This document shows positions 3,325-37,669 of a stretch of DNA of 64,000 nucleotides, one piece after another; within the stretch, counting starts at the first letter, position 1, and the number at the start of each line of letters is the position of its first letter. Source of the DNA: an uncultured Bacilli bacterium (GTDB lineage Bacteria; Bacillota_I; Bacilli_A; RF39; UBA660); contig CAKOOK010000002.1 in assembly GCA_934098515.1 (NCBI GenBank), positions 18,371-82,370 of the forward strand, given 5' to 3'. The notes beneath the pieces are model-generated. The model saw nothing but the letters and a program-made list of their open reading frames with translations, searched no databases and was not told the origin of the DNA. A program made the position numbers and the translations under genes.

Positions 3325-5889
3325 TTACTGAAGCATATTTTCTAATTCACATCTAAATTTTGATTGCCCCTCTAATATTTTACCATTCTTTATGTAATCA
3401 AAAAACTCTGGGTATGCATTAGGGCTCAAAAAATGAAAGATATATTCCTCATTTTCTCCAACCTCATCAAGAATTTCATTTAAATTTTCGAAATGTTCAA
3501 TACCATATTTATATTTAGCTTTATTTTCTTCACTATCATCACCGTCTGCTTTTATTTCGACAACTAAATAATAAACTTTATTATTCTTTACAATTTTAAT
3601 AAAGAAATCAGGGTTAAATAATTGATTTTTAATTTGGTGACTATTCTTTTTCCAAGAGTATTCTATTGAATAAAATCCCATATCTCTTGATTTTATCCAT
3701 GAATCAACACAATTTGCAATTTCCTGTTTTGTCAGGTATTCAACAAAGTCGGATTCAGGTTTTCCAGTTGTAAAAACCATACTCATAGGTGTTTTAAATA
3801 AATAGGTATTTTTATTATTTAGTGATCTAACTGGTCTACTATCATCTTCTATAAAATCATTTAATATTTTTTTATCATCTTCTAATAATTCTTTATCGTA
3901 ATCATCTGTATAATATGCACGTGCCTCTTTTCTTAAACTTGAAATTGAAATAGTTTGTTTTGACATTGAATTTGTATCAATATCAAACACATTCATATTT
4001 TTTGATATTGGAATTACAGTTTTATTCTTCTTTCGTAAAAGTGTACCAAACGTTGTTAAAATATTATTTCTATTTTTTTCTGTTAAATAGTTATCAGTTA
4101 TTCCAACTTTTTTCATAGAATCAAGAATAATTTTTTTTATTATAAATCTGTCTGGAAGATTGTTTTGAGTATATTGTTCTTCTCCAAGCTTTAAAATTTT
4201 TCCTTCCCAATCTCTTGCTCTAAATTCAGTTATGATTTTATCTACTACCTCATCTACAGAATAGCATTCTCGCTTTATAATATAGTTTACTTCACTAATA
4301 TCTCTTGAATTATATAAAGACTGAAATGTAGTACCTTTTTCAATTTCTATACTTTGAGATTCTAATTTTATTCCATTATTTACTATATTTGAATAATCTA
4401 TTACAGTAGAATTTGCTTCTTTAGCTACTTCAATTTCTTCTTTTTCATAATTAATATTTTTTACAGTAAAATTAAATTTAGATCTATAACCTTCTAATAA
4501 AGGATAACCTGCTAATCTTGTTTCAACTTCCAAAACTTCAGAAACTAAATTAGAAATATTTCTACTCCATGAAACATGATTAAAAACTTTTACACTTGGA
4601 ATATTACCATAATATTCACTTGGTATCCTTAAACCTCTTCCTAAAACTTGTGATATTAACAACTTAGAATTAAATGCTCTATCTTCCCACGGAACAATTT
4701 GCATTACATTCTTAACATCCCATCCCTCAGTTAACATTGATACTGAGACAATCCATTCTATTGGACTTTCAATTTTGTCGACACTTTTTAATTTATTTTT
4801 TTCATCTGGTGAAGATTTGCTCGTGATTAATAATACTTTTTTGCTTATTTCCTCATATGATGTATTTAACTCATTTGAAAGAAATTCAATTAAATCTTCC
4901 GATAAATTTGTTGCATTTGAAATATTGGCACATACAAATATGGTAATTGGCTTAATTAAAGCATATCTTTCCTTATTCCTTATATGATTTTGATATATTT
5001 TTTGAAATTTTTCTTTTGTGGTTGTAGTATCATCTTTTATAGCATAATTTATATCTTTTACCGTTCTTTCATCTATTGCTTTTCTTAAAGAATATCTATA
5101 AATAACATCATTAAAGTATTCATTTTCGATATACGCAGTTCCTGTTAACCCTAAAATATACTTAAAGTTATAACTATCATTTAGCAAAAATTCTTTCCAC
5201 TTTTTCAAATCTTTATAAATACTCGCATTATAAATATGGTGTGCCTCGTCATTTATGACTAAAACATTGCCATGTGCATTTTTAAAGCTATCTTCAATGG
5301 ATGAACCAGTATTAGAATAAACTGCGTGAATATTCTCTATACATATATCTCCTGATTTAATTGTATAATTGCCATTAGTTAAATGAGGATTTTTTGTAAT
5401 TGCATCATCAGGAACTAAGCTTTGAATATTATTATCTGATAATAATTGCATAAACTTTTCAGTTAATCCGGCTTCTATTGTTGTAGATGGGCATAAAACT
5501 AAAACTTTATCCACTAACCCCAATCCAAGCATTATTTGTGCAACACCAAATATTATATAAGATTTACCTGTGCCAGTTGCTAAGTCAATAGTCGCAGTTA
5601 ATTTGTTTTTTAATTGTATATTATCATAGTATTCATTTATTGTATTATATTTTTCTTGTAAAACAGGATTTCTTTGATAATTTTCAAGTACTAAATCTTC
5701 AACACTACTATAATTGCCAGATCCTAAATATATAATTGCATTTTTAATTGCATCTATCTGATAATATCTATTACCACATAAACGTTCAATATATTCTTCC
5801 CATTTATCCAATGCTAATTTGTTATGATCATAATTTTTACTAACTTTAAGTGTCAAATCATCTGTTTTAAATATGTAATTATCTTTCAT
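3325..5889 (-). CDS. res: Type III restriction endonuclease Res subunit (SF2 helicase-like)
   Basis: 854 aa. GTGKS Walker A and DEAH box (LVINDEAHH). Overlaps the mod stop by 11 bp (translationally coupled mod-res). Confidence 0.85.
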   Translation of the reverse strand: MKDNYIFKTDDLTLKVSKNYDHNKLALDKWEEYIERLCGNRYYQIDAIKNAIIYLGSGNYSSVEDLVLENYQRNPVLQEKYNTINEYYDNIQLKNKLTATIDLATGTGKSYIIFGVAQIMLGLGLVDKVLVLCPSTTIEAGLTEKFMQLLSDNNIQSLVPDDAITKNPHLTNGNYTIKSGDICIENIHAVYSNTGSSIEDSFKNAHGNVLVINDEAHHIYNASIYKDLKKWKEFLLNDSYNFKYILGLTGTAYIENEYFNDVIYRYSLRKAIDERTVKDINYAIKDDTTTTKEKFQKIYQNHIRNKERYALIKPITIFVCANISNATNLSEDLIEFLSNELNTSYEEISKKVLLITSKSSPDEKNKLKSVDKIESPIEWIVSVSMLTEGWDVKNVMQIVPWEDRAFNSKLLISQVLGRGLRIPSEYYGNIPSVKVFNHVSWSRNISNLVSEVLEVETRLAGYPLLEGYRSKFNFTVKNINYEKEEIEVAKEANSTVIDYSNIVNNGIKLESQSIEIEKGTTFQSLYNSRDISEVNYIIKRECYSVDEVVDKIITEFRARDWEGKILKLGEEQYTQNNLPDRFIIKKIILDSMKKVGITDNYLTEKNRNNILTTFGTLLRKKNKTVIPISKNMNVFDIDTNSMSKQTISISSLRKEARAYYTDDYDKELLEDDKKILNDFIEDDSRPVRSLNNKNTYLFKTPMSMVFTTGKPESDFVEYLTKQEIANCVDSWIKSRDMGFYSIEYSWKKNSHQIKNQLFNPDFFIKIVKNNKVYYLVVEIKADGDDSEENKAKYKYGIEHFENLNEILDEVGENEEYIFHFLSPNAYPEFFDYIKNGKILEGQSKFRCELENMLQ

Positions 5890-7768
5890 TCAAATCACCA
5901 CTACCTTTTTTTATTTCGGTAAACTCATTACCAAAAATATCAGTATATATAATCATAACATCTAAATTACCAATTTTATTAAGATTAATTGTTATATTAT
6001 CATCTATTATTTTCAAATCATTAGCAAAATAATAATCAGTCATTAGAAAGTTTTGTCCATCATAGTTTTTATCAATAAAAATCGAAGCTAACGTTTCAAA
6101 ATTTTTATATTCATTGCCATCATTATCTACTAATGTCTTGCTATAGAATTTACTAAGAATTATTTCAATTGAACTATCATGTAGAATTATTTTGCTTTCA
6201 ACATCAGGCTGTTCAATGAAGTGAAAACCTATTGCCATATCTATATTATTGACACTATTCATGCTTTTTGATTGTTCCATTTTTTGAAATGGATATTTAT
6301 GTAATTCTTTTATTACTTGATATGGAATTTTTAAAAAATAATATCTAATTTCATTAATTTCAAAATAATCATTTAAAAAATCTACATTATTACTTGGAGC
6401 AACAATATAAATTCTGCCATTAATCCTACTTCCAATATTTTTATGTAATTCGTTTAGATAGTCTTCATCAATGCTAGAATCTTTATTTTTATTAAAGTCC
6501 CATATTTTAACATAATGATTCTTTTTAATACCATCAAAAGAAATTCCTGATATTTTCGTTTCCTTTAATTCAAATTCAAAAAGTTCAGAAACAAATTTTT
6601 TATAATCTTTCCAATCAAGTTTTAAAGTTTTTTCTAAATCATATAATCCAAGTTGGTATGTAGAAAATGTCTCGAAATCTTTCCCATATTTTTTATTTGG
6701 ATTAGTTAATGACCTGGATTTTTTAATATTTAATATTCTCTTCTGAATTGTATAAATAGATAATTTACCAATATCGCAAATAATCCACTTTCTTCCTAAT
6801 TTTTCAGCAGCAAAAGCAGTCATTCCTGATCCACCAAAGAAATCCATAACAATATCACCTTTTGATGATGCCGTTTTAATTATTTTTTCAAGCAATTTAA
6901 ACGGTTTTTCTGTTGGATATCCTGTTCTCTCAATTCCATCAATTTTTTGACGAGCAATAACTGGAATGTACCACCAATCTTCTGGAATTTTTCCTTTTTC
7001 CCTATTTTTTATCACATCTTCTTCTGAATAGTCTGCTCCAAATGCCTTTCTTAATCCTTGATTTGGATCTTTATATTCTTCTCTGATTTCATCTTCATTA
7101 AAAATCCATGTATCAGTTTTTGTATACCATAGTATAGTATCATGTTTTCTATTAAATTGTTTCATCTTTGATGATCCTGGACCAGTATATGTCCATATTA
7201 TTTCATTTCTTAAATTATTTTTACCAAATATTTCATCTAAAATCACTTTGATATAATGCGACATCCTGTAATCCAAATGAACAAATATTGAGCCATCATC
7301 TGATAAAATTTCTCTTGCTAAAATCAATCGTCTTCGCAGAAATTCTATAAATTGTGATCCTTTAACTTTGTCGCTATATGCCTTGGCCCCCTTTTTATTT
7401 TTAAATTCATCTTCCGTTGCAAATGGCGGATCGATATAAATGATTTTTACTTTGTCTTTTACTTTATCTTTAATTATAGGATCTTCATTTTCATATATAT
7501 TTTTTAATAATTGCAAATTATCTCCAAATACAAGCATATTCTCCCATTCGTTTTTATTTTTTTTAGCCCCAAACGTTTTATCTTTTTGCAAAGGAATAGA
7601 AAAAACCCCGTCAGCATCTTTTAGTATATCTTCCCTTTTCATTTTTCCAAAATATGACAATTCATATTCTTTATTTACTGTTGGAAAAAGAATTTCTTTA
7701 TATTCATCCGGAATACTATTTCCGGATGTTAACAATCTAATTAATTCATTTTTTGTTTCTTCGCTCAT
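5879..7768 (-). CDS. mod: Type III R-M Mod subunit (N6-adenine DNA methyltransferase)
   Basis: 629 aa. DPPF motif (IYIDPPFAT). Strong SD GGAGGT upstream of ATG. Immediately upstream of res. Confidence 0.85.
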   Translation of the reverse strand: MSEETKNELIRLLTSGNSIPDEYKEILFPTVNKEYELSYFGKMKREDILKDADGVFSIPLQKDKTFGAKKNKNEWENMLVFGDNLQLLKNIYENEDPIIKDKVKDKVKIIYIDPPFATEDEFKNKKGAKAYSDKVKGSQFIEFLRRRLILAREILSDDGSIFVHLDYRMSHYIKVILDEIFGKNNLRNEIIWTYTGPGSSKMKQFNRKHDTILWYTKTDTWIFNEDEIREEYKDPNQGLRKAFGADYSEEDVIKNREKGKIPEDWWYIPVIARQKIDGIERTGYPTEKPFKLLEKIIKTASSKGDIVMDFFGGSGMTAFAAEKLGRKWIICDIGKLSIYTIQKRILNIKKSRSLTNPNKKYGKDFETFSTYQLGLYDLEKTLKLDWKDYKKFVSELFEFELKETKISGISFDGIKKNHYVKIWDFNKNKDSSIDEDYLNELHKNIGSRINGRIYIVAPSNNVDFLNDYFEINEIRYYFLKIPYQVIKELHKYPFQKMEQSKSMNSVNNIDMAIGFHFIEQPDVESKIILHDSSIEIILSKFYSKTLVDNDGNEYKNFETLASIFIDKNYDGQNFLMTDYYFANDLKIIDDNITINLNKIGNLDVMIIYTDIFGNEFTEIKKGSGDLNER

Positions 7769-7905: not shown

Positions 7906-8262
7906 GTGATTAATACAAGGAATTTGAAGAATTGTCTGATTAGAAAATGTACTAACGAGGATATTTCTGATGAAGAATTAGAGAAAGTTATAAATCCTTT
8001 TTATGATAATTATCATAAGTATATTATTACATATGTTATGACTGAAGTAATTATATTTTATATAGCCAGTTCCTTTAGTAGGAATGCTATATGGGAAGCA
8101 ACATTTTATCATCACTATAATTCAGCTAAAGATATATTTAATGTCAGTGATGATGAAAATTATGAAAGTATTAAAGCTGAGGTAATAAAGTTATTAAGAA
8201 TGAAGTATTCTTTAGAAATTATTAGTGAAAATCCATTAGATCTTAAAAAAATTAAGTATTAG
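7906..8262 (+). CDS. hypothetical protein
   Basis: 118-aa ORF with no recognisable motifs. Accessory context. Confidence 0.3.
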   Translation: MINTRNLKNCLIRKCTNEDISDEELEKVINPFYDNYHKYIITYVMTEVIIFYIASSFSRNAIWEATFYHHYNSAKDIFNVSDDENYESIKAEVIKLLRMKYSLEIISENPLDLKKIKY

Positions 8263-8322
8263 TTTTTGTTCTAATACTCTTTTTATTATACAATTTATAA
8301 CTTTCAAGCAGTATATAATAAA

Positions 8323-8966
8323 ATGACAAAGTTTCAAGTTCCTAATGAGTGTAGAAAAGAAATGGCTTATTATACTTATGATAAAATTAAAAAGTTTATT
8401 TCTTATGAAGAAGATATAAGATGAAAATGTGTATTTGAAATATTATATTATTGTGACCTTCGTAAAGGAGAACTAAAAGGTCTTACTTGGAAGGATAATT
8501 ATTTTGATAAAAAAGTATTATCTGTTAATAAACAAATAACTCAACGAAATAATCGTGTTAAGTATGAATTTTCGGATACTAAAACAAGAGATAGTAGAAG
8601 AATAGTTTTCATTATTAAAGTCTTGTTAAATGAACTTAAAATGCTCTATGAACAGGATAAAAAAGAGTATTACGAATTTAATGATGATTTCTTTGTTGTA
8701 TCTGATGCTAAACCTATAGCTGATTCTAATATATATATCTTAGAAGAACTAAACTGGCTACATTAGCTGGTTTAAAGGTTATTAGGATCCATGATTTTAG
8801 ACATACGTGTGCATCACTACTTATTAACAATGGTGCTAATGCTACATTAGTTGCAAAATATTTAGGACATACAAAAATCGAGGAAACACTAAATACATAT
8901 TCACATATGTTTAGTACTGCCCTCGACTCTGTTGTTTCTGTTATAGATAGCTTAGAAGATGACTAA
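8323..8966 (+). pseudogene. Tyrosine recombinase/phage integrase remnant (5'-truncated, in-frame TGA at 8422-8424, frameshift near 8750)
   Basis: Translation gives ..LRKGELKGLTWKD.. then, after a frame switch, ..IRIHDFRHTCASLL..LGH..TYSH.. (HxxR box and catalytic Tyr). No SAM-like N-domain. Broken reading frame. Confidence 0.7.
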
Positions 8967-9907
8967 GCTATTTTTTTATTATATGTTCTACATTCAACTG
9001 GTTGCAAATATTGTTCTTCTGGTTCAACTCCATACATATCTGCTCTAAACTCTTCTAAATTTATCAACATTTTATTTAAAAATTTATTATTTATAATATA
9101 ACTTTTATAATCATCAGATTCCTTAATTTTAACATCAAATAATTCTTTTTGCAGTTCTAAAAGTTTTTCCAATACCACCGCTTCATTTCCTTCTCCATTT
9201 AAAAACAATTGAAAATGGTAACATTCCTCTTTCATTTTATTTAACATTTCAAATAAGGGTTGATATGTATTATTATGTATTTTTGTATAAGATTTTTCCC
9301 CTGAAAAAAACTGCATATCGCCTAACATAAAACTTAATTCAATAGTGCTTTCTTTTGATATACTTATATATTGTTCATATATTTCCTTTGCTTTATTTCT
9401 TAGCTTTTCAATATGTGTATCTACACACTCACTAGCATATATTTGTATAGATGTCTTAGATACTTTTTTTGCTAATTCAGGATGATTGTTAATATATTCT
9501 TTTATAAGAATATCTTTATATTTTTTATCTCCAATAATAATTTTATCTTTACTTATCTTATTGAATTTTTCTTTCCACTTTTTATTATTTAATTCATTTA
9601 TATATGAGATAACGGTATCTTTGCTATATTCATTAAATAAAAATTGCATATTAGAAAATTTTTCAATCAATCTTCTGGTTTCCTGCCAATATTTTTCTAA
9701 CAATTGTCTCTTACTAACATTATATGCTGGAATAGCTAGTAAAAGAGCTACGCATCCACTTCCAAATAAACCTATAAATATGTTTAATAATACTTCAAAT
9801 AATTTATTATCATAGTTTAATACTAAGAGAGTAAAAATTATTATTAAAACTAAAAAAATACTACTTATAATAATCGAAGCTTTTAATGCTCTACAATTTG
9901 CTTTCAT
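8963..9907 (-). CDS. hypothetical membrane protein (2 N-terminal TM helices plus long Lys/Glu-rich, probably coiled-coil cytoplasmic domain)
   Basis: 314-aa ORF. Hydrophobic segments at residues about 10-30 and 40-60. Start overlaps the stop of the upstream Zn-ribbon ORF (ATGA). Confidence 0.5.
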   Translation of the reverse strand: MKANCRALKASIIISSIFLVLIIIFTLLVLNYDNKLFEVLLNIFIGLFGSGCVALLLAIPAYNVSKRQLLEKYWQETRRLIEKFSNMQFLFNEYSKDTVISYINELNNKKWKEKFNKISKDKIIIGDKKYKDILIKEYINNHPELAKKVSKTSIQIYASECVDTHIEKLRNKAKEIYEQYISISKESTIELSFMLGDMQFFSGEKSYTKIHNNTYQPLFEMLNKMKEECYHFQLFLNGEGNEAVVLEKLLELQKELFDVKIKESDDYKSYIINNKFLNKMLINLEEFRADMYGVEPEEQYLQPVECRTYNKKIA

Positions 9908-10125
9908 TATTTTTCACCCTGAATATTACTAATAACATATTTAGATAATTCTTCATAATCACTTATATTTCCAATTCTTTTTAAATATTCATATCCACCA
10001 TCTATTGCAACTGCACCACATGAGCATCTTTTAAAATCATTAATATCTTTTGATTCAAGAATTGAACCACACTTTTTACATTTTATCTTGTTCAATTTTA
10101 TTATTTTTATTTCTTTATTTTCCAC
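9907..10125 (-). CDS. small zinc-ribbon protein (CxxC...CxC)
   Basis: 72 aa. CKKCGS...CSCGAV. Translationally coupled to the 314-aa membrane protein. Confidence 0.45.
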   Translation of the reverse strand: MENKEIKIIKLNKIKCKKCGSILESKDINDFKRCSCGAVAIDGGYEYLKRIGNISDYEELSKYVISNIQGEK

Positions 10126-10240
10126 AAAACATCACCCAAGAAATATTATATCATAACTATGCATTATGTATATTATACCGTTCGCGATATAATATATTTT
10201 ATTCAACAAAAAAAGAACATTAATTGCTCTTTTATGAGGT

Positions 10241-10359
10241 GTTCAGTTCTGTTCGGAGCTGTTCAATGTGTTCGCTCCTGTTCAGAGCTGTTCACTTCTG
10301 TTCAGTGGTGTTCAGTTCTGTTCAGAGCTGTTCACTTCTGTTCAAAGCTGTTCAGCCAA
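10241..10359. repeat. Tandem array of 12 x 10-bp units (GTTCAnnnnn) with 40-bp higher-order periodicity
   Basis: GTTCA at 10241, 10251, 10261, 10270, 10280, ... 10350 (step 10, one 9). 20-mer GTTCAGAGCTGTTCACTTCT exact at 10280 and 10320. Confidence 0.85.
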
Positions 10360-10360
10360 A

Positions 10361-11812
10361 TTATTGTTTTATGATATATTTTCCATAAGCGTCATTCTTT
10401 GTAGTACCAGTCCATATTATTAATTCTTTTTCTATTAATCTGTTTAGCAATGCTACAGCAGTAGTTTTACTTCTACCTATTATATTACTAATTTCTTCTC
10501 TTGTTGCTCCATTGTTATTAATAATAAATTCAATTGCTTTTTGCTCAGGATATGTTAATTGATTCCAAATATTTTTTACTGTTTCATTTGATGAAGCATT
10601 GTTTACATTAGATCTATTTTCTATATCATTATCCAAAACAAGCAATACTGAATTACGATCCGGTTCAGAATAATCTGGATCTTTCAAATTATAGTCATGC
10701 ATCTCTTTATAAATTCTTTTTACACCTTCATTTAATTCTCTTACAATGCCAAACTCAACTAATGCTCTTGCAATTTGTGGATTTCTTGAATATCTTTTTA
10801 CCTTCATTGTATCTAATGTTACAAAACCGCCAAGTTTACCAGGAGAAGATATTTCCATTCTATTATTATATATTTTCACTATTATTTGTTCACCACTATT
10901 AGAATAATCTCTATGAGTTACAGCATTAACGATTCCTTCATACCATGCAAATTCCGGATATTCAGGATGTTTTTCAAAAACACCATTTGAATTTAAATAA
11001 CTAAATTCTCTTAATTGCGAATTAATAAAATCCTTGGCTTCATTTAAAATTCTATATAAATTTTTATCAAAAGTCTTTTCTTTTATTACATTCATTGAAG
11101 TTCCAATTTGAAAATCATTACCTTCAAATTTAATTACTCTTAAACGAGAGCAAGGAAAATATATTGATGGATTTTTACCAAATAAAAGCATACCTGCATT
11201 AGTAAATTTTAATTCACCCTTAATTTCTCTAATATAACCTCTTGCTTTTAATACAGAAATATCATCAGCATCTGTATCAATTTTTTTCTTAAAAATACCA
11301 ACTACTTCTGTATCAATATCATCCATGCTAGAATCCCAAACAATTTGATTTTCAAAATTAGTTTCATTTCTATCATATTCTAAACTTTTTATTTGATCAT
11401 ATGTTAGTTTAATAGATGAGTCTCCTTGTCTACAATAAACCTCATCCTTAACGTTTCTAATTACTCTATTCATAGATGGTTCTACGTGATATAAAATTAT
11501 AATATCATCTTCATCTTTAGAATTATTAATATTTATTATCTCACAATTGCAAATTGGTGTCGGCTTTAAGTATGCTGAAACTATTTTCTGTGCTTCGTTT
11601 AATTTATCTATTCCATATTTGTTAAATCCTTCTATTTTTCCATTATCTGCAACACCAAGTGCTACTATTCCTCCTTGAGCATTAGCTAGTGCCATTACCT
11701 CATTAGCAACCGTTTTCAAATCTGTTTTACCAGATTTCCTTTCAAAATATAGATTTTCAGGTTGTTGCAAATATTCTATTGTGATTTTTTTGTTTATTTT
11801 AGATAAAGACAT
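10361..11812 (-). CDS. COG2865-type ATP-binding protein (AlbA_2/Schlafen-like divergent AAA domain + HATPase-like + C-terminal wHTH)
   Basis: 483 aa. N-term FERKSG...ANAQGGIVALGV typical of AlbA_2. C-term ..ATREEISNIIGRSKTTAVALLNRLIEKELI (HTH). Confidence 0.6.
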   Translation of the reverse strand: MSLSKINKKITIEYLQQPENLYFERKSGKTDLKTVANEVMALANAQGGIVALGVADNGKIEGFNKYGIDKLNEAQKIVSAYLKPTPICNCEIININNSKDEDDIIILYHVEPSMNRVIRNVKDEVYCRQGDSSIKLTYDQIKSLEYDRNETNFENQIVWDSSMDDIDTEVVGIFKKKIDTDADDISVLKARGYIREIKGELKFTNAGMLLFGKNPSIYFPCSRLRVIKFEGNDFQIGTSMNVIKEKTFDKNLYRILNEAKDFINSQLREFSYLNSNGVFEKHPEYPEFAWYEGIVNAVTHRDYSNSGEQIIVKIYNNRMEISSPGKLGGFVTLDTMKVKRYSRNPQIARALVEFGIVRELNEGVKRIYKEMHDYNLKDPDYSEPDRNSVLLVLDNDIENRSNVNNASSNETVKNIWNQLTYPEQKAIEFIINNNGATREEISNIIGRSKTTAVALLNRLIEKELIIWTGTTKNDAYGKYIIKQ

Positions 11813-11906
11813 ATTATCACCTCATTAACATTTTATCATAAAAATGAGTTATTTATTCAATTATTAAAATATTTATACTAAATAAATTTTTAATTCTAAT
11901 TTTTTT

Positions 11907-11926
11907 TACCTAAATTGTACCTAAAA
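11907..11926. repeat. 20-bp direct repeat TACCTAAATTGTACCTAAAA, right copy
   Basis: Exact match to 3274-3293, same orientation. Confidence 0.7.
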
Positions 11927-11971
11927 TTATTTTAGCAATACTGATACCTCGTAAGCTCTTATAAAATGGGA

Positions 11972-12110
11972 CCAAAAAATGAGAGCACAGTTAAATGCTC
12001 TCTTCAGGGGGTTTTGGTTGATACACCTTAACATTGAATTCGTTAAGGTTATCAGCATGATATCTCTACCATGCTAAAATAATCATAAACGAATTTTTAA
12101 TCTTTGTCAA
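11972..12110 (-). ncRNA. candidate small RNA (sigma-A promoter + three stem-loops + intrinsic terminator)
   Basis: Minus strand: TTGACA (12109-12104) - 17 nt - TATGAT (12086-12081). Then hairpins AGCATG..CATGCT, CCTTAAC..GTTAAGG, GAGAGCA..TGCTCTC followed by ATTTTTTGG. No ORF. Confidence 0.35.
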
Positions 12111-12230
12111 TCACAATTTTTAATAATTTACAAAATGTTAATTAAAATAGTAAATTCTCTATTCTTTAAAAAACGAGAAATTAGTTTTATAATCCTTTTC
12201 TTTTCTGTCATGAAAGAAAATTAAATAAAA

Positions 12231-12833
12231 TTATTTAACTTTTTTAAGTTCTTCGTAATATAAAATAAATGTTACGTTCATATAAGGAACAAGCCAAATA
12301 TATAAAATTCCTAAAGTAAAAATTCCAAGTAATAACCAGCCAAAGAAACTTAGAACTAACATAAAATAATCCATCTTATATCCATTCATCATTTCCTTAC
12401 TTTTTCTAATGCAATCCATCGGATTCGTATTTCCATCGATCATTAATAAATTTACCATTGAGTAACTTAATGCTGCAATAATACCAGGAATAATAAGAAG
12501 TAATGCCCATAAAGTTGAAAATAGTGAAGTTAAAAACCATACTCCAAATATTGGTCCAAACATCTTGTAATATTGAAACATTCCTTTAATATCACATTCT
12601 TCACCTCTAACAAATTTCATAACATAAGCAGTAGCTCCAAAACTTAGTGGTAACGTAATAATTGTTGATAGCATTTGTGCGCTCGTACTAACATAAATAT
12701 TATCACTATTTACTCCAAAAAATGCTCCAATAAGCGAATTTATCAAAGACACAATAACAAACGGTATTACTAAATCCCACACATGGCCTTTAATCATAGC
12801 TTTAGCTTTTTCTTTTAATTCTTTTCTATTCAT
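12231..12833 (-). CDS. DUF975-family integral membrane protein
   Basis: 200 aa, multi-TM, N-terminal basic stretch. Family call from overall architecture only. Confidence 0.45.
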   Translation of the reverse strand: MNRKELKEKAKAMIKGHVWDLVIPFVIVSLINSLIGAFFGVNSDNIYVSTSAQMLSTIITLPLSFGATAYVMKFVRGEECDIKGMFQYYKMFGPIFGVWFLTSLFSTLWALLLIIPGIIAALSYSMVNLLMIDGNTNPMDCIRKSKEMMNGYKMDYFMLVLSFFGWLLLGIFTLGILYIWLVPYMNVTFILYYEELKKVK

Positions 12834-12869
12834 ATCATCACCAATATAATTATATACAATTCTAAAATT

Positions 12870-14858
12870 CTAAGCAATAGTTAAGTTCTCAAGAATTTCC
12901 TTCTGCACTTTATAATTATCTAAATTCTTATTTTTCAAAAATTCCTCAGCATCACTTTTACATTGCATTAAAATTTTATAATCTCTATTTAAATTTGCAA
13001 TTTTAAAACTCTGCTCACCACTTTGTCTAATTCCAAAAATGTCTCCTCCACCTCTTAGCTTAAAGTCCTGCTCACTAATATAAAATCCATCATTACTCTC
13101 TTCTAAAACTTTTAACCTTTCAGCATCATAATCACTTATCAAATAACAATAACTTTGCATGTCATTTCTACCAACTCTACCTCTTAACTGATGAAGTGTA
13201 GCAAGTCCAAACCTTTCTGCATTAAAGATAACCATCATCGTCGCATTTTTAACATCAACACCAACTTCGATTACCGTTGTTGAAATCAATATCTTAGTAT
13301 CACCGTTTTTAAAACTATTCATTACTTCATCTTTTTGATTAGGTTTCATTCTTCCGTGCAATAAGCCCGTAGGAACCATTCCATTAAATGCTACATCAAA
13401 CTTGTCTTTTAAGGAAGTTACATTCATCTTTTCATCCTCTTCATCATCAATAAGTGGTGCTACGACATATATTTGATGCCCTGCTTTTATTTCATCTAGC
13501 ATTTTCTCTAAAACATTTTTAAGTTCACTATTTTTAAAAATTTTAGTAATAATCTCTTTTCTGCCACCAGGTTTAGTTCTAATTTCTGTAATATCCATAT
13601 CACCATAAATAGTTAAAGCTAGTGTTCTAGGAATTGGTGTTGCACTCATATATAACACGTCAACATCTTTTCCTTTTTCTTGTAAAGTCTGTCTTTGATT
13701 AACACCAAATCTATGTTGCTCATCAGTAATAACAAGCCCAAGATTATTATAAACAAGTTCATCATTAAGTAAAGAATGCGTACCAATTAAAACTTGAGTC
13801 TCACCATTTTTTAAATTCTGTAAAATCTTATTTCTTTCACCTTTTTTAGTTGAACTTGTAAGTAACTGGATATTTAACTTATCTCCAAAAAGACTTTTCA
13901 TATTATTAAAATGTTGTATTGCTAATATTTCTGTCGGTGCCATAAGCACGCCTTGATACCCTGCTAGCATATTCATATAAAGTGCAATAAAAGAAACTAT
14001 CGTCTTACCACTACCAACATCACCTAAGATTAATCTATTCATTTTCTTCTTAGATAAAAAGTCTCCCTTAATATCACTTACTGCCTGCATTTGCCCATCA
14101 GTTAAGTTAAATGGCAAACTACTAATAAAATTATTAACCTTATCTTCATCAAAACTCTTAATGTTAAATTTGCCATCACTTGCATTCTTCTCTTTTAAAT
14201 AACTTACCTTTAACATAAAAGTAAATAGTTCTTCATATATTAAATGCAAATCTGCTTTTTTCAAACTGTTAATATCTTTAGGTTTATGCACATTAGTAAC
14301 CGCTTCTTTTTTATTTATAAAATTGTACTTTTCTATTAAATAATCTGGTACATTACTTTTAATTTCTACTGTATTATCCAAAATCTCATCAACTAATTTT
14401 TTAAAATTGCTTCTCTTTATCCCTTGATTCAAATGATAAACTGGTTCAATCACCGTTTTAGTTATTGGCGTAAGCTTTATATCACTCGCCATAAATGTAT
14501 TAGATTTTCTATTATATTTACCAATTACTGATATATAACTTTTAATTCTAATATTCGGTTTTAAATAAGCCCGATTAAAGATAGTAACATTTACTAGTTC
14601 ACTTCCAGTATTAAATGCAAAAGATAATTTATTAAGATTTTTTCTTATAAAAAATACTTTAACTGCAGACTCAACATATCCAGTAATTGTGCATGTATCG
14701 CCTTCACTAGACTCTCTTAACTTGACTGGTGTATAAACATTATATCTGTAAGGAAAATAATTAATAACATCATCTTTTGTATATAAATTAAGTGCTTTTA
14801 AAGCAAGTAAACTTTTAGGTCCAATTCCTTTTATATCTTCTAGCATTGTAATCACCAT
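12870..14858 (-). CDS. recG: ATP-dependent DNA helicase RecG
   Basis: 662 aa. Wedge domain plus GDVGSGKT Walker A, DEQHRFG, QLRGRVGR. Confidence 0.85.
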   Translation of the reverse strand: MVITMLEDIKGIGPKSLLALKALNLYTKDDVINYFPYRYNVYTPVKLRESSEGDTCTITGYVESAVKVFFIRKNLNKLSFAFNTGSELVNVTIFNRAYLKPNIRIKSYISVIGKYNRKSNTFMASDIKLTPITKTVIEPVYHLNQGIKRSNFKKLVDEILDNTVEIKSNVPDYLIEKYNFINKKEAVTNVHKPKDINSLKKADLHLIYEELFTFMLKVSYLKEKNASDGKFNIKSFDEDKVNNFISSLPFNLTDGQMQAVSDIKGDFLSKKKMNRLILGDVGSGKTIVSFIALYMNMLAGYQGVLMAPTEILAIQHFNNMKSLFGDKLNIQLLTSSTKKGERNKILQNLKNGETQVLIGTHSLLNDELVYNNLGLVITDEQHRFGVNQRQTLQEKGKDVDVLYMSATPIPRTLALTIYGDMDITEIRTKPGGRKEIITKIFKNSELKNVLEKMLDEIKAGHQIYVVAPLIDDEEDEKMNVTSLKDKFDVAFNGMVPTGLLHGRMKPNQKDEVMNSFKNGDTKILISTTVIEVGVDVKNATMMVIFNAERFGLATLHQLRGRVGRNDMQSYCYLISDYDAERLKVLEESNDGFYISEQDFKLRGGGDIFGIRQSGEQSFKIANLNRDYKILMQCKSDAEEFLKNKNLDNYKVQKEILENLTIA

Positions 14859-28535: not shown

Positions 28536-29774
28536 CTACTCAGCTTGTTTTTCTATCTTTATAATCATCTGATACAAATCTTCAAAATCAAAATCTTCAC
28601 TAGAAACATTATATCCTGCTTCCTTTAATTCGTTAACAAAATCATTATAAGCCTCTTTAACAGAATCTAAATTATTTTCTAAAATTCTCTTCTTTGGAGG
28701 TTCTACCGGTTTTTCTTCTTCTTTTTTAACTTCTTCAAGTGGAACATCAAGACTTTCTAATGGTACATCTTTACTAATAGTACTACTACTATTAAATGGA
28801 TTAAACTCTTCCAATCTATCCATAGGCTCCATATTCATATTAGTAACTTCATCCTCTAAAGATGGATACTCTGGAGTATTATTACTAAAATTAAATAAAT
28901 TAAATCCTGGACTTGGTTGTGTTTTTTCTTTTTTAACATCTGATTCATTTATAGGATCTTCTGCCATTAAATCAAGAGTTTCCGTTTTCTCTTCTTTTGC
29001 TGGTTCAGAATTAAATATATTATCAGAATTATCAAATATATTGGTAGATTCATCAACTTTAGGAGCATTATCTAACACGCTTAAATTTTCAACTGGAGTA
29101 CTAACATCACCTAAATCTTCATAAGCAGGTGCCTCACTTATAACTGGTTCACTTACTAAATTACTTTCCTTCTTTATCTCATCATCTAACTGTCTAACAG
29201 TAAGTCTTTCAGAAATAACCTTATTTAATAAAGCCTTCTGCTTCTCAGGATCAGTTACACTAAGTAAACTTCTCGCATGTCTTTCACTAATTTTATCATT
29301 CATGAGTGCATCTTGCGCTTCACTAGTTAAATTCAATAATCTTAACTTATTTGCAATCGTTGACTGTGAAACTCCAATTTTCTTAGCAAGTTCATCTTGC
29401 GTTAAACCTTCCTTATCAAGAATCTTCTTATAACTCTTAGCTTCCTCTAGTGAATTTAAATTTCTTCTTTGAACATTTTCAACTAAAGCAATTTCAGCAC
29501 TCTTATTATCATCAATATTAGAAATTATTGCTGGAACTTCAGTTAACCCAGCAAGTTGTGCAGCCTTATAACGTCTTTCACCTGCAATTATCTCATATTT
29601 ATCCCCAAGTCTTCTTAATACAAGTGGCTGAATAATACCATGCTCTTTAATTGATGAAGCAAGCTCATTTAAAGACTTCTCATCAAAAGTAAGTCTAGGC
29701 TGAAACCTATTTGGAATAATATAATCTATATTAACATTTTGTATTAACGGCTCTCTATTCATAAAACAACCCAT
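28536..29774 (-). CDS. ParB/Spo0J/Noc-family protein with about 200-aa acidic low-complexity C-terminal extension; no adjacent parA
   Basis: ParB N-domain (..IIPNRFQPR.., IQPLVLRR..YEIIAGERRYKAA), HTH (LTQDELAKKIGVSQSTIANKLRLL). Sits next to rsmG as noc does in Bacillus. Confidence 0.75.
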   Translation of the reverse strand: MGCFMNREPLIQNVNIDYIIPNRFQPRLTFDEKSLNELASSIKEHGIIQPLVLRRLGDKYEIIAGERRYKAAQLAGLTEVPAIISNIDDNKSAEIALVENVQRRNLNSLEEAKSYKKILDKEGLTQDELAKKIGVSQSTIANKLRLLNLTSEAQDALMNDKISERHARSLLSVTDPEKQKALLNKVISERLTVRQLDDEIKKESNLVSEPVISEAPAYEDLGDVSTPVENLSVLDNAPKVDESTNIFDNSDNIFNSEPAKEEKTETLDLMAEDPINESDVKKEKTQPSPGFNLFNFSNNTPEYPSLEDEVTNMNMEPMDRLEEFNPFNSSSTISKDVPLESLDVPLEEVKKEEEKPVEPPKKRILENNLDSVKEAYNDFVNELKEAGYNVSSEDFDFEDLYQMIIKIEKQAE

Positions 29775-29792
29775 CCTATTCTAAATATAATA

Positions 29793-30509
29793 TTACTTTA
29801 TTTTTCTAATTTTTGCAATAGGAGATTTACGTATTTTATCATAAACTCTAGGATAACCATTCGGTGTATCACTAACCTTTTCAACTTTAACTAGTGTTCT
29901 TTCACCAGCATCATTAAGTAAAGAAAATTCCTCTTTCTCACTAATTTTTCCGCCTAAGAACTCGATAGCATAATTAGCACTATCAATTTCCTCTGTATTT
30001 TTACCCTTCATAGCAATAAAATAACCACCAACTTTACAAAAAGGAATTGCAAGTTCACTAAGAATACTCATATCAGCAACTGCCCTCGAAACAACAACAT
30101 CAAATCTTTCACCAGATAAATAATACTTTTCTGCTCTATCATTAATAACCGTAGCATCTATTCCTAACTTACCTAAAACATACTTTAAAAAAGTAGTTTT
30201 TTTATTATTACTATCTAAAAGCGTCAACTTAATATCAGGAAACATAATTTTCAAAACAATTCCCGGAAATCCAGCACCAGTACCAATATCAAGTACACTT
30301 TCATTACTAAAACTATAAACCTTATAAATAGTCAAACTATCATAAAAATGCTTTAAATAAACTTCATCAATATTACGAATAGCCGTCAAATTAGTATGTT
30401 CATTATAAGAAAGAAGTTCACTAGCATACACCCTAAATTTATTTATCTGCTCATCACTAATACTTAAACCTAAATTTTCTAAAGAACTTATAAACTCACT
30501 TTCACTCAT
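29793..30509 (-). CDS. rsmG: 16S rRNA (guanine527-N7)-methyltransferase RsmG (GidB)
   Basis: 238 aa. SAM motif DIGTGAGFPG. Conserved position after mnmG. Confidence 0.85.
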   Translation of the reverse strand: MSESEFISSLENLGLSISDEQINKFRVYASELLSYNEHTNLTAIRNIDEVYLKHFYDSLTIYKVYSFSNESVLDIGTGAGFPGIVLKIMFPDIKLTLLDSNNKKTTFLKYVLGKLGIDATVINDRAEKYYLSGERFDVVVSRAVADMSILSELAIPFCKVGGYFIAMKGKNTEEIDSANYAIEFLGGKISEKEEFSLLNDAGERTLVKVEKVSDTPNGYPRVYDKIRKSPIAKIRKIK

Positions 30510-32386
30510 TTGTTATACTCCTTCTTCAAATAAACAGCAAGTACTGAAATATCTACCGGATTAACTCCACTAATTCTAGACGCCTGTGCTAAAGTAAGCG
30601 GTCTAACTAATTTAAGTTTTTGTCTAGCCTCGCTTGCTAAATTCTTAATCTTATCATAATCAATATCAGCAGGAATCTCTTTTTCCTCAAGTTTTAATAA
30701 CTTATTAGCTTCCTGATATTCTTTATTAATATAACCTTCATACTTAACAAAAAACTCAGCCTGCTCCAGTACATCCTTATCATATTCTTTAATTAAATTG
30801 CCTCTTAAATAATCTATAATTTTAACCTCTGGTCTCTTTAATAAATCATAAAGACTATAACCTGTTGATAAATTATCCTTTAAATAACTTAAAGCCTCCG
30901 GAAGTGTATTTTTACTAACCCTAGCATTTTTAAGTTCATCAAGAAGTGTATTAATCGCCTTTTCCTTAATAAGAAGTTTACTATATCTTTCTTCATCAAT
31001 TAATCCAGCCTCATATCCATACTTTCTAAGTCTCAAATCGGCATTATCATGACGAAGTATTAACCTGAATTCAGCCCTAGAAGTTAGTAATCTATAAGGT
31101 TCTTTAGTACCCTTAGTAACTAAATCATCAACTAAAACTCCAATATAAGATTCATTTCTTTTAAGTATTAATGGTTTCTCACCTTTTAACATCAATCCCG
31201 CATTAATTCCAGCAATAATACCTTGACCAGCAGCCTCTTCATAACCACTAGTACCATTTATCTGCCCAGCAGTAAATAAATTCTTTAATACCTTAGTTTC
31301 CAAAGAAGGATTTAATTGTAACGGATTAATCGCATCATACTCAATAGCATAAGCATACTTCTTAATAACCGCATGCTCCAACCCTACCAAACTATGTACC
31401 ATCTCTTCTTGAACATCAACTGGCATACTCGTTGAAAATCCCTGTAAATACAAATCATCATAATATAAACTTTCTGGCTCTAAAAATAACTGATGACGCT
31501 CTCTATCTGCAAATCTAACAACCTTATCCTCAATTGAAGGACAATATCTTGGACCAATACCTTCTGCATAACCACCATACATAGCAGATCTAGACAAATT
31601 ATCTCTTATAATCTTATGTGTATCTTGATTAGTATAAACTATATAACACTTTTCCTGCTTATCTTTATCATAAAATGGTCCATTATCAAAACTAAAAGTC
31701 CAATAACAATCATCACCACACTCTTCACTAAGCTTAGAAAAATCAACACTACTTCTCTCAATTCTTTGAGGTGTACCAGTCTTTAATCTTTGAATTTCAA
31801 ATCCATAATCAGCGAGCTTTCTACTTAAATTATTACTTCTTCTCTCTCCATGAGGTCCTTCATATTTAAAAGTATCACCAACTAATATCTTACTATTTAA
31901 ATAAGTACCAGTAGTTAAAATAACCGCTTTAGAATTTATTGTATTTCCATTTTCTAATATTACACCGGTTACAGTATTATCATTAACAATTAAATCTTCA
32001 ACCATAGCTTCCATAATTGTTAAATTAGGAGTATTTTCCAACTTTTCAAGCATAACTCTAGGATAAGTAATCTTATCAGCTTGCGCTCTTAAAGATCTAA
32101 CAGCCGGACCCTTAGCATTATTAAGCATCTTAATTTGAATATGGGTTTCATCTGCAACCTTACCCATTAAACCACCTAAAGCATCTATCTCTCTAACAAC
32201 AATACCCTTAGCAGTTCCACCAATAGATGGATTACATGGCATATCCGCAATATTCTTCTTATTAGCAGAAATTAAAAGCGTTTTTAACCCCATAACCGCA
32301 GTAGCATGCGCAGCTTCACATCCAGCATGACCACCACCAACAACTATAACATTATAATTCATAAATTCACCTACTTTCCTAAACAA
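30506..32386 (-). CDS. mnmG: tRNA uridine 5-carboxymethylaminomethyl modification enzyme MnmG (GidA)
   Basis: 626 aa. FAD-binding VIVVGGGHAGCEAA. Confidence 0.9.
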   Translation of the reverse strand: MFRKVGEFMNYNVIVVGGGHAGCEAAHATAVMGLKTLLISANKKNIADMPCNPSIGGTAKGIVVREIDALGGLMGKVADETHIQIKMLNNAKGPAVRSLRAQADKITYPRVMLEKLENTPNLTIMEAMVEDLIVNDNTVTGVILENGNTINSKAVILTTGTYLNSKILVGDTFKYEGPHGERRSNNLSRKLADYGFEIQRLKTGTPQRIERSSVDFSKLSEECGDDCYWTFSFDNGPFYDKDKQEKCYIVYTNQDTHKIIRDNLSRSAMYGGYAEGIGPRYCPSIEDKVVRFADRERHQLFLEPESLYYDDLYLQGFSTSMPVDVQEEMVHSLVGLEHAVIKKYAYAIEYDAINPLQLNPSLETKVLKNLFTAGQINGTSGYEEAAGQGIIAGINAGLMLKGEKPLILKRNESYIGVLVDDLVTKGTKEPYRLLTSRAEFRLILRHDNADLRLRKYGYEAGLIDEERYSKLLIKEKAINTLLDELKNARVSKNTLPEALSYLKDNLSTGYSLYDLLKRPEVKIIDYLRGNLIKEYDKDVLEQAEFFVKYEGYINKEYQEANKLLKLEEKEIPADIDYDKIKNLASEARQKLKLVRPLTLAQASRISGVNPVDISVLAVYLKKEYNK

Positions 32387-33726
32387 AACCTAGAAAATAA
32401 CTCATCTAATAAATCATCATCATAAGTTTTACCAATAACTTTACCTAATAAATCATAAGCATCTTTAATATCAATCGTATACATATCAATTGGTACTCCA
32501 GTATAAGTATTATTTACTGCTCCATTTATACTAGCAAGAGCTAGCTTAACCAAAGAAATCTGTCTTGCATTAGATAAAAATGAATAATCACTAGTCTCTA
32601 ACTCGTTAATCTTAAATAACTCTATAATTTTATTTTTCAAAGATTCTAATCCGGAAGACTCAATAGTATTTCCATAAACTAAAATATCTTTATCAATACC
32701 ATCATAATTATTACTACTATCTAAATCATTCTTATTGACAAAAACTAACTTTTTATCTTTTAAAGATTTTATAAATTCTAAAGTTTCATTATCTAACTTT
32801 TCACTATTATCTAAAACATAAATTCTCAAATCAGCATTTTCTGCACTTTCTAAACTCTTTTGTACACCTATCTTTTCAACCACATCATCGGTTTCTCTAA
32901 TACCAGCAGTATCAATAAAATTTAACACAATACCATCTAAAATAACTTTGCCTTCAATAACATCTCTAGTAGTTCCTGGAATATTTGTTACAATTGCTTT
33001 ATTTTCTTCTAGTAAACCATTTAAAATACTACTCTTTCCAGCATTAGGTTTACCTATTAAAGCAATATTAATTCCATTTTTAATCATCTTACCATTACTA
33101 GAATTACGTACTAACTCATCTAATTCTGCACTTATTTTTTCAAGTTTTGGTCTTATAGTAGACTCGGTATACTCCTCAGCCTCCTCATACTCTGGAAAAT
33201 CTATATTAACTTCAATCTCTGCTTGCAAAGAAAGTAATTCCTTTCTAATACCATCAATTTTAGGAGTTAACTTACCACTAATTTGATTAATTGCAAGCTT
33301 TCTAGCTTTCTCACTTTCTGCTTCAATAATGTCTTCAACCCCTTCAGCCTGAGTTAAATCTATTCTGCCATTTAAAAAAGCTCTCTTAGTAAACTCACCA
33401 GGCTCTGCTAATCTGCACCCATTATTTAAAAGAAGCTCAAGCACTCTATCAGTAGTTGTAATTCCTCCATGAACATTAATCTCTACAACATCTTCACACG
33501 TAAAAGTTTTAGGAGCTCTCATTACAGATACTAACACCTCATCTATAACTTCATCACCAGACACAATATGACCATAAGAAATAGTATGAGAATTCACTTT
33601 CTCCAAATCCTTACCCTTAAATATTGAATTAACTATTTTAATTGCATCTACTCCACTACATCTTACAATAGAAATAGCCCCAGTTCCAACAGCAGTAGAC
33701 ACTGCACAAATTGTAGAATTATCCAT
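32371..33726 (-). CDS. mnmE: tRNA modification GTPase MnmE (TrmE)
   Basis: 451 aa. G-domain GKPNAGKSS, DTAG. C-terminal CLGK. Confidence 0.9.
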   Translation of the reverse strand: MDNSTICAVSTAVGTGAISIVRCSGVDAIKIVNSIFKGKDLEKVNSHTISYGHIVSGDEVIDEVLVSVMRAPKTFTCEDVVEINVHGGITTTDRVLELLLNNGCRLAEPGEFTKRAFLNGRIDLTQAEGVEDIIEAESEKARKLAINQISGKLTPKIDGIRKELLSLQAEIEVNIDFPEYEEAEEYTESTIRPKLEKISAELDELVRNSSNGKMIKNGINIALIGKPNAGKSSILNGLLEENKAIVTNIPGTTRDVIEGKVILDGIVLNFIDTAGIRETDDVVEKIGVQKSLESAENADLRIYVLDNSEKLDNETLEFIKSLKDKKLVFVNKNDLDSSNNYDGIDKDILVYGNTIESSGLESLKNKIIELFKINELETSDYSFLSNARQISLVKLALASINGAVNNTYTGVPIDMYTIDIKDAYDLLGKVIGKTYDDDLLDELFSRFCLGK

Positions 33727-33791
33727 GACAAAAACTCCTCTTCTAGTGCGTATTATAGCACAATTCTCTTAAAAATAAAAAAAGACTATTT

Positions 33792-34403: not shown

Positions 34404-34404
34404 A

Positions 34405-35657: not shown

Positions 35658-35694
35658 AACTCACCCATATAGAATAAAAACCACTGTACGTGGC

Positions 35695-35817: not shown

Positions 35818-35829
35818 AAAAAATTGCAC

Positions 35830-37556: not shown

Positions 37557-37669
37557 AAAAGTTTTGCACAAACAATACACATCAAATTTTTCCCATAATT
37601 GTGGAGAAAAAAAGACTTATTAACATTTTCAACAGCAATAATAATAAAAAAAAGAAAGAAGGAATAAAA

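Follow-up and report, generated by a model that had tools for sequence, protein, structure and literature searches.

Many prokaryotic Schlafen (pSlfn) proteins combine a nuclease domain of the SLFN/AlbA_2 type with a GHKL ATPase and a C-terminal helix-turn-helix (HTH). Here, we describe a tandem repeat array that lies directly 3' of a gene for such a protein in a 64,000-nucleotide stretch of DNA from an uncultured Bacilli bacterium, a low-GC gut organism (contig CAKOOK010000002.1, positions 18,371 to 82,370). This whole stretch is referred to below as the window, and coordinates given without a locus number are positions in it. The Schlafen gene (10361..11812, minus strand) encodes a 483-aa protein of COG2865. 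The array (10240..10354) separates it from a minus-strand operon of two genes, which encode a 72-aa zinc (Zn)-ribbon protein of family DUF7695 (9907..10125; Pfam PF24749, E=7e-25) and a 314-aa protein that has two N-terminal hydrophobic segments and no family match (8963..9907; hereafter the two-transmembrane, or 2-TM, gene). Related loci and contigs are cited by L numbers and sub-lineages by P numbers.

Structure of the repeat array

The array comprises 12 tandem units of TGTTC(A/G)+NNNN as written on the plus strand, corresponding to (T/C)GAACA on the gene-sense minus strand; the element itself is assigned to neither strand. TGTTCA starts at 10240, 10260, 10279, 10289, 10299, 10309, 10319, 10329, 10339 and 10349, and TGTTCG at 10250 and 10269. 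All steps are 10 bp except for a single 9-bp step (10260 to 10269), and super-periods of 20 bp and 40 bp are superimposed on the basic period. A first reading of these letters, the initial annotation, had described 12 phased units spaced by about 10 bp, and the units are indeed found at 10240-10354. It had given GTTCA as the core throughout, which is correct for ten units, the other two having GTTCG. Likewise, the 20-mer GTTCAGAGCTGTTCACTTCT that it had placed in two copies 40 bp apart does occur at 10280 and 10320, but the full exact repeat is longer, at 27 bp (10278-10304, identical to 10318-10344).

Tandem Repeats Finder described the array at three periods: 10 bp (12.1 copies, score 86), 20 bp (score 106) and 40 bp (2.5 copies, 86% matches, score 145), the last being higher than any other score in the 64-kb window. 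Across the window as a whole, TGTTCA shows no enrichment (37 copies, with 40.6 expected); within the array, ten copies fall on one strand in 115 bp, with 0.02 expected (Poisson P ~2.5e-24). Phased GAACA pairs are absent from the rest of the window, save one chance pair at 33875. The G+C fraction of the array is 0.46, compared with ~0.25 in its surroundings, making it the locally most GC-rich stretch, and the sole AA dinucleotide of the units is that inside GAACA. An intrinsically curved element, which the initial annotation had considered, would be expected to carry phased A-tracts; the array contains no helically phased A-tracts of 4-6 bp.

The array and the Schlafen stop codon (10361-10363) are 6 nt apart. 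On its other side, the array is followed, after 68 bp, by the -35 of a promoter-like site for the Zn-ribbon gene. Both placements, next to the COG2865 stop and upstream of the operon promoter, thus stand as originally annotated. A plus-strand open reading frame (ORF) also exists across the array (10159-10374) and is, as had been stated, merely the translated repeat. One extra unit, in inverted orientation (AGAACA on the plus strand; 10214..10219), is situated 20 nt past the promoter-proximal end of the array; in the P0070 lineage (L366), three direct units are likewise followed by one inverted unit.

The adjacent Schlafen protein

In the 483-aa protein, the SLFN/AlbA_2 nuclease domain occupies residues 19-136 (PF04326, E=7.6e-17) and the GHKL/HisKinase-like ATPase domain (HATPase_c_4) residues 307-389 (PF13749, E=2.7e-19), and a predicted winged helix-turn-helix (wHTH) forms the C-terminus (residues 421-483; 10364..10552, minus strand). 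Proteins of this architecture have been named 'pSlfn-HisKinase-HTH' by Perez Taboada et al. (PMC13056530) and 'Schlatpase'-HTH by Kuzmenko et al. (10.64898/2026.05.29.728809). The PADLOC model for SLFN-pAgo matches the protein with E=6.7e-51, and many of its homologs are labelled 'RNA-binding domain-containing protein' by the Prokaryotic Genome Annotation Pipeline (PGAP). The Schlafen catalytic motif, defined as Ex4(E/D)xK (PMC13056530), corresponds in the translation to E19-N-L-Y-F-E24-R-K26 (11735..11758, minus strand). E19, R25 and K26 do not vary across 61 homologs; at position 24, where the window has E, at least 90% of them have D.

An AlphaFold2 (AF2) model based on a 61-sequence alignment had a mean predicted local distance difference test (pLDDT) score of 78.6. 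Over its full length, the model was matched by Foldseek to 3LMM, and its N-terminal domain to the nuclease domains of human SLFN14, SLFN11, SLFN13 and SLFN5. The C-terminus matched MarR/ArsR-type wHTH proteins with probabilities of 0.98-1.00 but E values of only 0.03-0.08; several of the matched structures (MepR, HpaR, ZitR and SlyA) were solved on DNA. Pfam MarR_2 and TrmB matches to this region were sub-threshold. The modelled wHTH (residues 421-481, pLDDT ~77-88) has helices at 421-432, 438-445 and 449-461, and strands at 465-467 and 479-481 that would form the beta-hairpin wing. The predicted recognition helix is the third (residues 449-461, KTTAVALLNRLIE; 10430..10468, minus strand). Among 59 distinct C-termini, positions 1 and 2 of this helix are the most variable of the whole wHTH (3.30 and 2.96 bits), and the packing residues L456, L459, W467, G469, D474 and Y479 are fixed.

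Arrays in homologous loci

The homologous loci included 80 metagenome loci whose Schlafen proteins are 40-64% identical to that of the window, three cultured examples (Streptococcus respiraculi, S. dysgalactiae and Fusobacterium vincentii) and closer relatives that are 70-79% identical. For a census, a locus was counted as having an array if the 350 nt that follow the stop codon contained three or more exact 6-mers in succession, each spaced 10, 11, 20, 21 or 22 bp from the next. Such arrays were found after the stop codon in 40 of 54 non-redundant wHTH types (40-64% identical), and two further types carry phased units upstream of the start codon. The corresponding figures were 2/204 for regions downstream of other ORFs in the same loci and 2/706 for tiles (Fisher P=1.7e-32 and 3.7e-52, respectively, for loci that are not phylogenetically independent). 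Most of the homologous loci have a tandem array located 0-70 nt from the stop codon, and the arrays are built from differing units. A stricter self-similarity test identified long arrays in 33 of 77 downstream regions; their periods were 10, 11, 20, 21 or 22 bp, with 15 bp as the sole exception, and none of 10 control arrays had such a period. Array periods are therefore limited to the length of one or two B-DNA turns.

The units differ widely in sequence and number. S. respiraculi has 16 copies of TTTATTGTAG, S. dysgalactiae about 21 copies of GGATACAGTA, and Fusobacterium clustered units of CTAGTAACTTT. Among the metagenome loci, units of TTATAGCAGT are present in 12-18 copies in L296 and L301, and AGTAGGTAAG in 12-13 copies in L305. 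L281 and L300 carry 6-7 copies of an 11-bp unit, TGTCGCA followed by 4 nt. L360 has units of the GGCGACCA type and L363 units of GCGA(A/C)CACTT. The longest array seen, ~330 bp with ~33 units, mixes GGTGTTCAAT and GGTGACCAGA (L359 3949-4290; protein 79% identical). A different arrangement was observed in L306-L311 and L317, which have no downstream array and carry instead three 21-bp units (GGTTCGCGAGGGGTAGAGCAG) ~70-130 nt upstream of the start, near the promoter.

The association was also reached from the DNA side. A pattern scan of genome and viral contigs for four consecutive GAACA-N5 units returned, among the matches listed, three TGAACAG-type 10-bp arrays (L032, L050 and L086), each directly 3' of a Schlafen homolog that is 47-61% identical to the window protein; the hosts are one Bacilli, one Tenericutes and one Clostridia metagenome-assembled genome (MAG). 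Most of the matches listed were (GAACA)n pentanucleotide microsatellites, which are common in genome and viral collections alike. Two other 10-bp arrays were among them, formed by TGAACAAGAG repeated at least 13 times in a viral contig (L248 78-223) and by TGAACACTTT repeated 11 times in a Thiomargarita MAG (L080 3726-3831); no Schlafen homolog was found within the stretch fetched for either. A protein-based scan of viral contigs gave no relatives of the Schlafen protein.

Arrays were absent from both sides of two HTH-less Schlatpase genes, located in BREX and type I restriction-modification operons, and from nine distant Schlatpase-HTH loci (22-27% identical) that have other HTH types. The trait thus marks one clade, which has the C-terminal signature LxWxG(T/S)..D...Y, and the linkage between gene and array holds across this whole clade. 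A separate pattern, below the array threshold, was seen 3' of an HTH-less Schlafen-GHKL gene on a Citrobacter IncC plasmid (L335 2703-2858), where TGCTTGA occurs in two 11-bp-spaced pairs located ~80 bp apart.

Repeat motif and recognition helix

In 104 units from 11 distinct related arrays, GAACA is invariant. The information content is 1.43 bits at the flanking T, 1.13 bits at the G after the core, and 0.5-0.8 bits at positions in the spacer. Other motifs accompany other recognition helices, and where helices are unrelated, so are their motifs. KTTAVALL or KTTAVKLL is found with GAACA/GTTCA, KTSAINLL with GCGA(A/C)CAC, KTSTINLL with GGCGACCA, RRTASRVL with TGTCGCA, TVTTRMYL with CTAGTAAC, and RPY(T/S)LKIL with TTAT(A/T)G. 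Motif similarity correlated with identity of the helix (Spearman 0.36) and with that of residues 1-400 (0.25); the partial rank correlations were 0.33 and 0.20, respectively. This comparison supports the view that the repeat motif is lineage-specific and follows the recognition helix.

Orientation and downstream genes

TGAACAG is in gene-sense orientation in the window, L086 and L363, and inverted relative to the gene in L032, L050, L254, L359 and L366. Such flips between relatives indicate that the array points to a duplex-DNA site rather than an RNA. The gene that follows the array is co-directional in 34 and convergent in 31 of 65 loci and, in homologs that are 40-89% identical, may be hsdS, an integrase gene, uvrB, or a gene for an ORF6N, XRE, MazG-like, ASCH/EVE or SEC-C protein.

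A further case is the P0153 sub-lineage, with a Schlafen protein that shares at least 90% identity with the window protein. It has lost the DUF7695 promoter region and the 2-TM gene, and DUF7695 itself is left as an uncalled 175-bp remnant with 82% identity. Between a cold-shock gene and a hibernation-factor gene, both the Schlafen gene (94% nucleotide identity) and an array of 5 units have stayed intact. As the array has outlasted the operon, its retention is linked to the Schlafen gene rather than to the Zn-ribbon operon. The array is therefore independent of the identity of the downstream gene, and its orientation is irrelevant.

Copy number

Within the cluster of proteins that are at least 90% identical, arrays of 5, 9, 12 and 13 units occur. 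An identical 12-unit array was present in 13 contigs from at least 10 samples, and in other sub-lineages a 5-unit class was constant in 10 contigs and a 12-unit class in 8; all of these are consensus assemblies. Further differences are found elsewhere: L363-L365 have 7 or 13 units beside one identical protein, and L296, L301 and L302 have 6-18 units. In the course of evolution, arrays thus gain and lose units, in each case whole ones, a pattern that does not resemble a hypermutable switch. As the changes involve whole 10-bp units at least 68 bp from the -35, they alter neither a reading frame nor promoter spacing. The initial annotation had proposed heritable switching by slipped-strand changes, with a comparison of strains as the check. 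Copy number proved constant within each sub-lineage (5, 9, 12 or 13 units), with no frequent length variation among near-identical strains as represented by their consensus assemblies. We also considered an association of 5-unit arrays with a split Schlafen gene (L002, L003 and L008); it was dropped, because intact genes with 5 units exist.

Neighbouring elements and the mobile module

The promoter-like site that precedes the Zn-ribbon gene (10145..10172, minus strand) consists of TATACA, 16 nt and TGATATAAT, the latter including an extended -10 (TG-n-TATAAT); with 10/12 matches, it is a match to consensus only. Its -35 overlaps a palindrome with 12-bp arms, TATATTATACCG-TTCG-CGATATAATATA on the plus strand (10169..10196), whose arms remain complementary in relatives via paired changes. 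This palindrome is probably a separate, conventional operator-like site for a dimeric regulator. Between the array and the promoter is an AT-rich hairpin, AAAAGAGCA-AUUAA-UGUUCUUUU followed by a U run (10208..10233, minus strand), which is weakly terminator-like (fold -7 kcal/mol, z=-2.3) and includes the inverted repeat unit at 10214-10219. A consensus terminator scan of 9700-10700 reported no terminator, this hairpin included.

PADLOC assigned no system to the DUF7695 or 2-TM protein. DUF7695 genes adjoin pSlfn-wHTH genes in four lineages: the window (9907-10125), L086 (3920-4114), L258 (~4620-4751) and L322/L329 (2797-2967). Their arrangement is co-directional downstream in the window, convergent downstream in L086 and L258, and directly upstream in L322/L329. 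The recurrence of DUF7695 beside pSlfn-wHTH genes in three arrangements suggests a functional partnership that is independent of the position of the array.

The Schlafen gene, the array, the DUF7695 gene and the 2-TM gene form a module of ~3.3 kb (~8781..12016, equivalent to L004 3110-6345). The module is 96-98% identical among contigs whose flanking recG is only ~66% identical, and it also occurs beside unrelated genes (gatB, fic, tnpV, a sigma factor gene and merR). Its left edge is sharp and its right edge ragged, and the exact DUF7695 protein is present in hundreds of metagenome contigs. These comparisons indicate that the module is horizontally mobile and heads variable restriction-modification cargo. 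A tyrosine-recombinase pseudogene with an in-frame stop and a frameshift (8362-8963, plus strand) abuts the module, is convergent with the 2-TM gene, and is 87-95% identical to an intact 200-aa gene in L009. In the window, the module is followed by a type III restriction-modification system (3325-7768; mod 5879-7768, res 3325-5889), the place of which is taken in related contigs by type I systems with an invertase and several hsdS genes, or by DpnII-type systems. The module is chromosomal and lies ~25 kb from dnaA. The chromosomal origin region spans 28536-44914, with a parB-like gene, mnmG and mnmE on the minus strand, a strand switch at ~35.4-36.2 kb, and dnaA, dnaN, recF, gyrB and gyrA thereafter on the plus strand.

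A proposed docking array for the Schlafen protein

We consider it fairly likely, with a probability of roughly 0.6, that the element is a cis-linked docking array that would offer the adjacent Schlafen-wHTH protein one site per helical turn. The repeats would be read by the protein's own wHTH. Each 10-bp unit would present one core, T-GAACA-G, once per turn. With 12 units in the array, as many as 12 wHTH domains would therefore have room to line up head-to-tail on the same side of the duplex. Binding may take place in pairs or tetramers, as the super-periods of 20 bp and 40 bp suggest. In its general form, this agrees with the cooperative, iteron-type reader envisaged in the initial annotation: the period is restricted, a core of 5-7 nt is invariant, the spacers vary, and a wHTH is encoded next door.

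Docking may keep several copies of a potentially toxic tRNase ordered, inactive and near their own gene, and/or it may autoregulate or insulate the locus; infection would then release the docked protein. The analogy is with SLFN-pAgo, in which filaments that are organised by a nucleic-acid-binding domain keep a homologous Schlafen-GHKL module inactive; the module becomes an active tRNase once the filaments have come apart and ATP-driven tetramerisation has taken place (10.64898/2026.05.29.728809). Should the array influence the Zn-ribbon/2-TM promoter at all, we would take this to be a side-effect confined to the locus in this lineage.

Several points weigh against this explanation. The adjacent wHTH is a putative reader of the repeats, deduced from sequence and a protein model, and the sequestration and activation step is argued solely by analogy with SLFN-pAgo. 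Twelve of the 54 wHTH types have fewer than three exact phased units, though mostly with 2-unit clusters. Periods of 10 bp and 11 bp both occur, and a rigid filament would need flexibility to accommodate them. The correlation between helix and motif may in part represent co-inheritance; moreover, locus pairs are phylogenetically non-independent, so that its P values are inflated and it is supportive only. In the window, the region around the promoter of the Schlafen gene contains no copy of the array motif, and classical autorepression by the Schlafen protein is thus not evident. Finally, because it is positioned between the stop codon and the weak hairpin, the array is probably transcribed, and as an isolated RNA it folds better than shuffled sequences (z=-3.3 sense, -7.8 antisense).

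A bolder version of the docking model, which we offer tentatively and hold to be doubtful, regards gene and array as an immune or addiction unit in which duplex DNA serves as the antitoxin. Newly made Schlafen tRNase would be captured at once by the array and held as an ordered inactive multimer; three tetramers on 12 units would suit the 40-bp super-repeat. Release might be triggered by phage-induced damage or degradation of host DNA, by phage DNA-binding proteins that displace the enzyme, or by loss of the locus, and would lead to translation shutdown. Lineage-specific pairs of helix and motif could prevent cross-neutralisation between co-resident systems.

Alternative explanations

The initial annotation had assigned the array to the Zn-ribbon/2-TM operon, and an upstream activating, repressing or curved element of this operon, bound by some regulator, is what the window by itself might suggest, given the 68-bp distance to the -35, the movement of Schlafen gene, array, DUF7695 gene and 2-TM gene as one 3.3-kb unit, and the recurrence of DUF7695 beside pSlfn-wHTH genes in four lineages. 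We nevertheless regard this role as distinctly unlikely, since the array accompanies the Schlafen gene at its 3' end whatever follows: it is present in ~75% of homolog types regardless of the downstream gene, the next gene is convergent in 31/65 loci, and the DUF7695-like gene is convergent in L086 and L258, so that the array there lies at its 3' end. Relatives that are 70-79% identical have arrays without DUF7695, P0153 has kept its array after deletion of the promoter and decay of the gene, and the promoter owns a separate palindrome with 12-bp arms. A contingency locus, in which slipped-strand changes in unit number switch neighbouring genes heritably on or off, could draw on the differences between sub-lineages (5, 9, 12 and 13; 7 versus 13; 6-18), yet appears extremely improbable, as the 12-unit array is identical in 13 contigs and the classes are constant within sub-lineages in the consensus assemblies. 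A 10-bp unit also preserves phase, the tract is outside ORFs and outside the -35/-10 interval, and in other lineages it is often between convergent genes.

Tandem 10/20-bp repeats beside the gene for a DNA-binding protein are also a feature of sopC, parC, tubC and P1 incA, and this likeness, together with the mobility of the module, its abutting tyrosine recombinase gene and the position of the array between Schlafen and integrase genes in S. respiraculi and L296/L301, raises the question of whether the repeats are iterons, a partition centromere or recombinase arm sites of a mobile element that carries the module. This is very unlikely: the module has no Rep, ParA, ParM or TubZ gene, the locus is chromosomal, ~25 kb from dnaA and found in many chromosomal contexts, most array-bearing loci have no nearby integrase, and the motif follows the Schlafen wHTH across contexts. 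An element acting at the RNA level, i.e., a 3' untranslated region of the Schlafen mRNA that serves as a structure, a protein-binding repeat RNA or a small-RNA precursor, is highly improbable in our view. The better-than-shuffled folding, the PGAP label noted above, and the location of a weak hairpin beyond the array, with no terminator between stop codon and array, are consistent with it. Against it, orientation flips between close relatives turn the RNA into its complement; the partial self-complementarity stems from the spacers of this lineage and is absent from the arrays of other lineages; the array is upstream of the gene in one lineage; and the Rfam 15 covariance models gave no match at E up to 1 on either strand of window positions 8000-13000. 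There is, lastly, the possibility of another reader, such as a host nucleoid protein or DUF7695, or of a selectively neutral by-product, prone to slippage, in the region where genes of this family end. Many of the arrays consist of near-perfect repeats, a pattern that fits recent expansion by slippage. We judge this unlikely in view of the confinement of the period to one or two helical turns, the invariant core set against drifting spacers, the lineage-specific motifs across phyla ranging from 25% to >60% GC, the lack of arrays at HTH-less homologs, and the absence of DUF7695 from most loci.

Significance

On the docking explanation, the element would be a tandem array of putative wHTH sites attached to an immune nuclease gene. 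Full-text literature searches for COG2865, Schlatpase and pSlfn returned no description of such arrays, with incomplete coverage that leaves room for an earlier one, and repeat arrays go unmentioned in PMC13056530, PMC12839542 and the SLFN-pAgo preprint (10.64898/2026.05.29.728809). Schlafen-GHKL-HTH proteins are among the commonest bacterial Schlafens, with 19% of pSlfns in one survey (PMC13056530), and HTH accounts for >90% of Schlatpase C-terminal tails in another (10.64898/2026.05.29.728809); these proteins have been linked to BREX and restriction-modification islands. A conserved, co-evolving array is a concrete candidate ligand for the HTH of this class, and it opens the regulation of an ancient immune nuclease, which has human homologs in SLFN11/13/14, to direct tests. 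If the explanation is correct, helically phased arrays would have a new use besides origins, centromeres and promoters. In addition, a 10/11-bp array right after the stop codon is a simple genomic signature for annotation of these systems.

Comparison with known systems

The array resembles iterons, partition centromeres and pho-box arrays, yet it belongs to none of these classes, nor to contingency loci. Response regulators of the OmpR/PhoB type recognise direct repeats through a wHTH; the repeat centres are 10-11 bp apart, and the bound domains are arranged head-to-tail on a single face of the DNA. In pho boxes and the F and C boxes of OmpR, the functional unit is 20-22 bp and contains two half-sites, and several units may occur in tandem. 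The combination of a wHTH with tandem 10-11-bp direct repeats is thus shared, a likeness drawn from general knowledge. In contrast, the array system has no receiver domain, and its putative reader is one domain of a protein that also contains a Schlafen nuclease and a GHKL ATPase. It has up to ~33 units, compared with 2-8, and these are found not in target promoters but at the 3' end of the gene for the putative reader itself, with no other copies in the 64-kb window.

Partition centromeres, such as parC/ParR of R1 and pSK41, tubC/TubR and sopC/SopB, likewise have tandem repeats of 10-12 or 20 bp beside the gene for their binder. As in our arrays, these repeats are lineage-specific and co-evolve with the binder, which in centromeres coats them cooperatively. 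The array locus differs in that it is part of a chromosomal defence island and its putative binder carries an immune nuclease; no motor NTPase domain (ParM, TubZ or ParA) was found in the module or in related loci. Iterons, including the P1 incA control arrays downstream of rep, share the super-period of about two turns and the location just downstream of the gene for a winged-helix binder. They differ in their unit, which is 17-22 bp, whereas that of the arrays is 10-11 bp in most lineages (10 bp in the window, with 20-bp and 40-bp super-periods), and in their context, the array locus having neither a Rep-family protein nor an origin. Phase-variable simple-sequence-repeat loci also have an intergenic tandem tract whose unit number varies between lineages; here, the unit is a whole helical turn, outside ORF and core promoter, and stable within sub-lineages.

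The comparison with SLFN-pAgo (RzAgo; 10.64898/2026.05.29.728809) concerns the protein rather than the repeats, since both systems use a homologous Schlafen-GHKL 'Schlatpase' effector module, as the PADLOC match indicates. In SLFN-pAgo, a nucleic-acid-binding sensor controls an ordered inactive multimer, and the system described here may be controlled in a similar way. Its sensor would be a wHTH in place of an Argonaute core, and the proposed scaffold would be an array in duplex DNA in place of a guide RNA.

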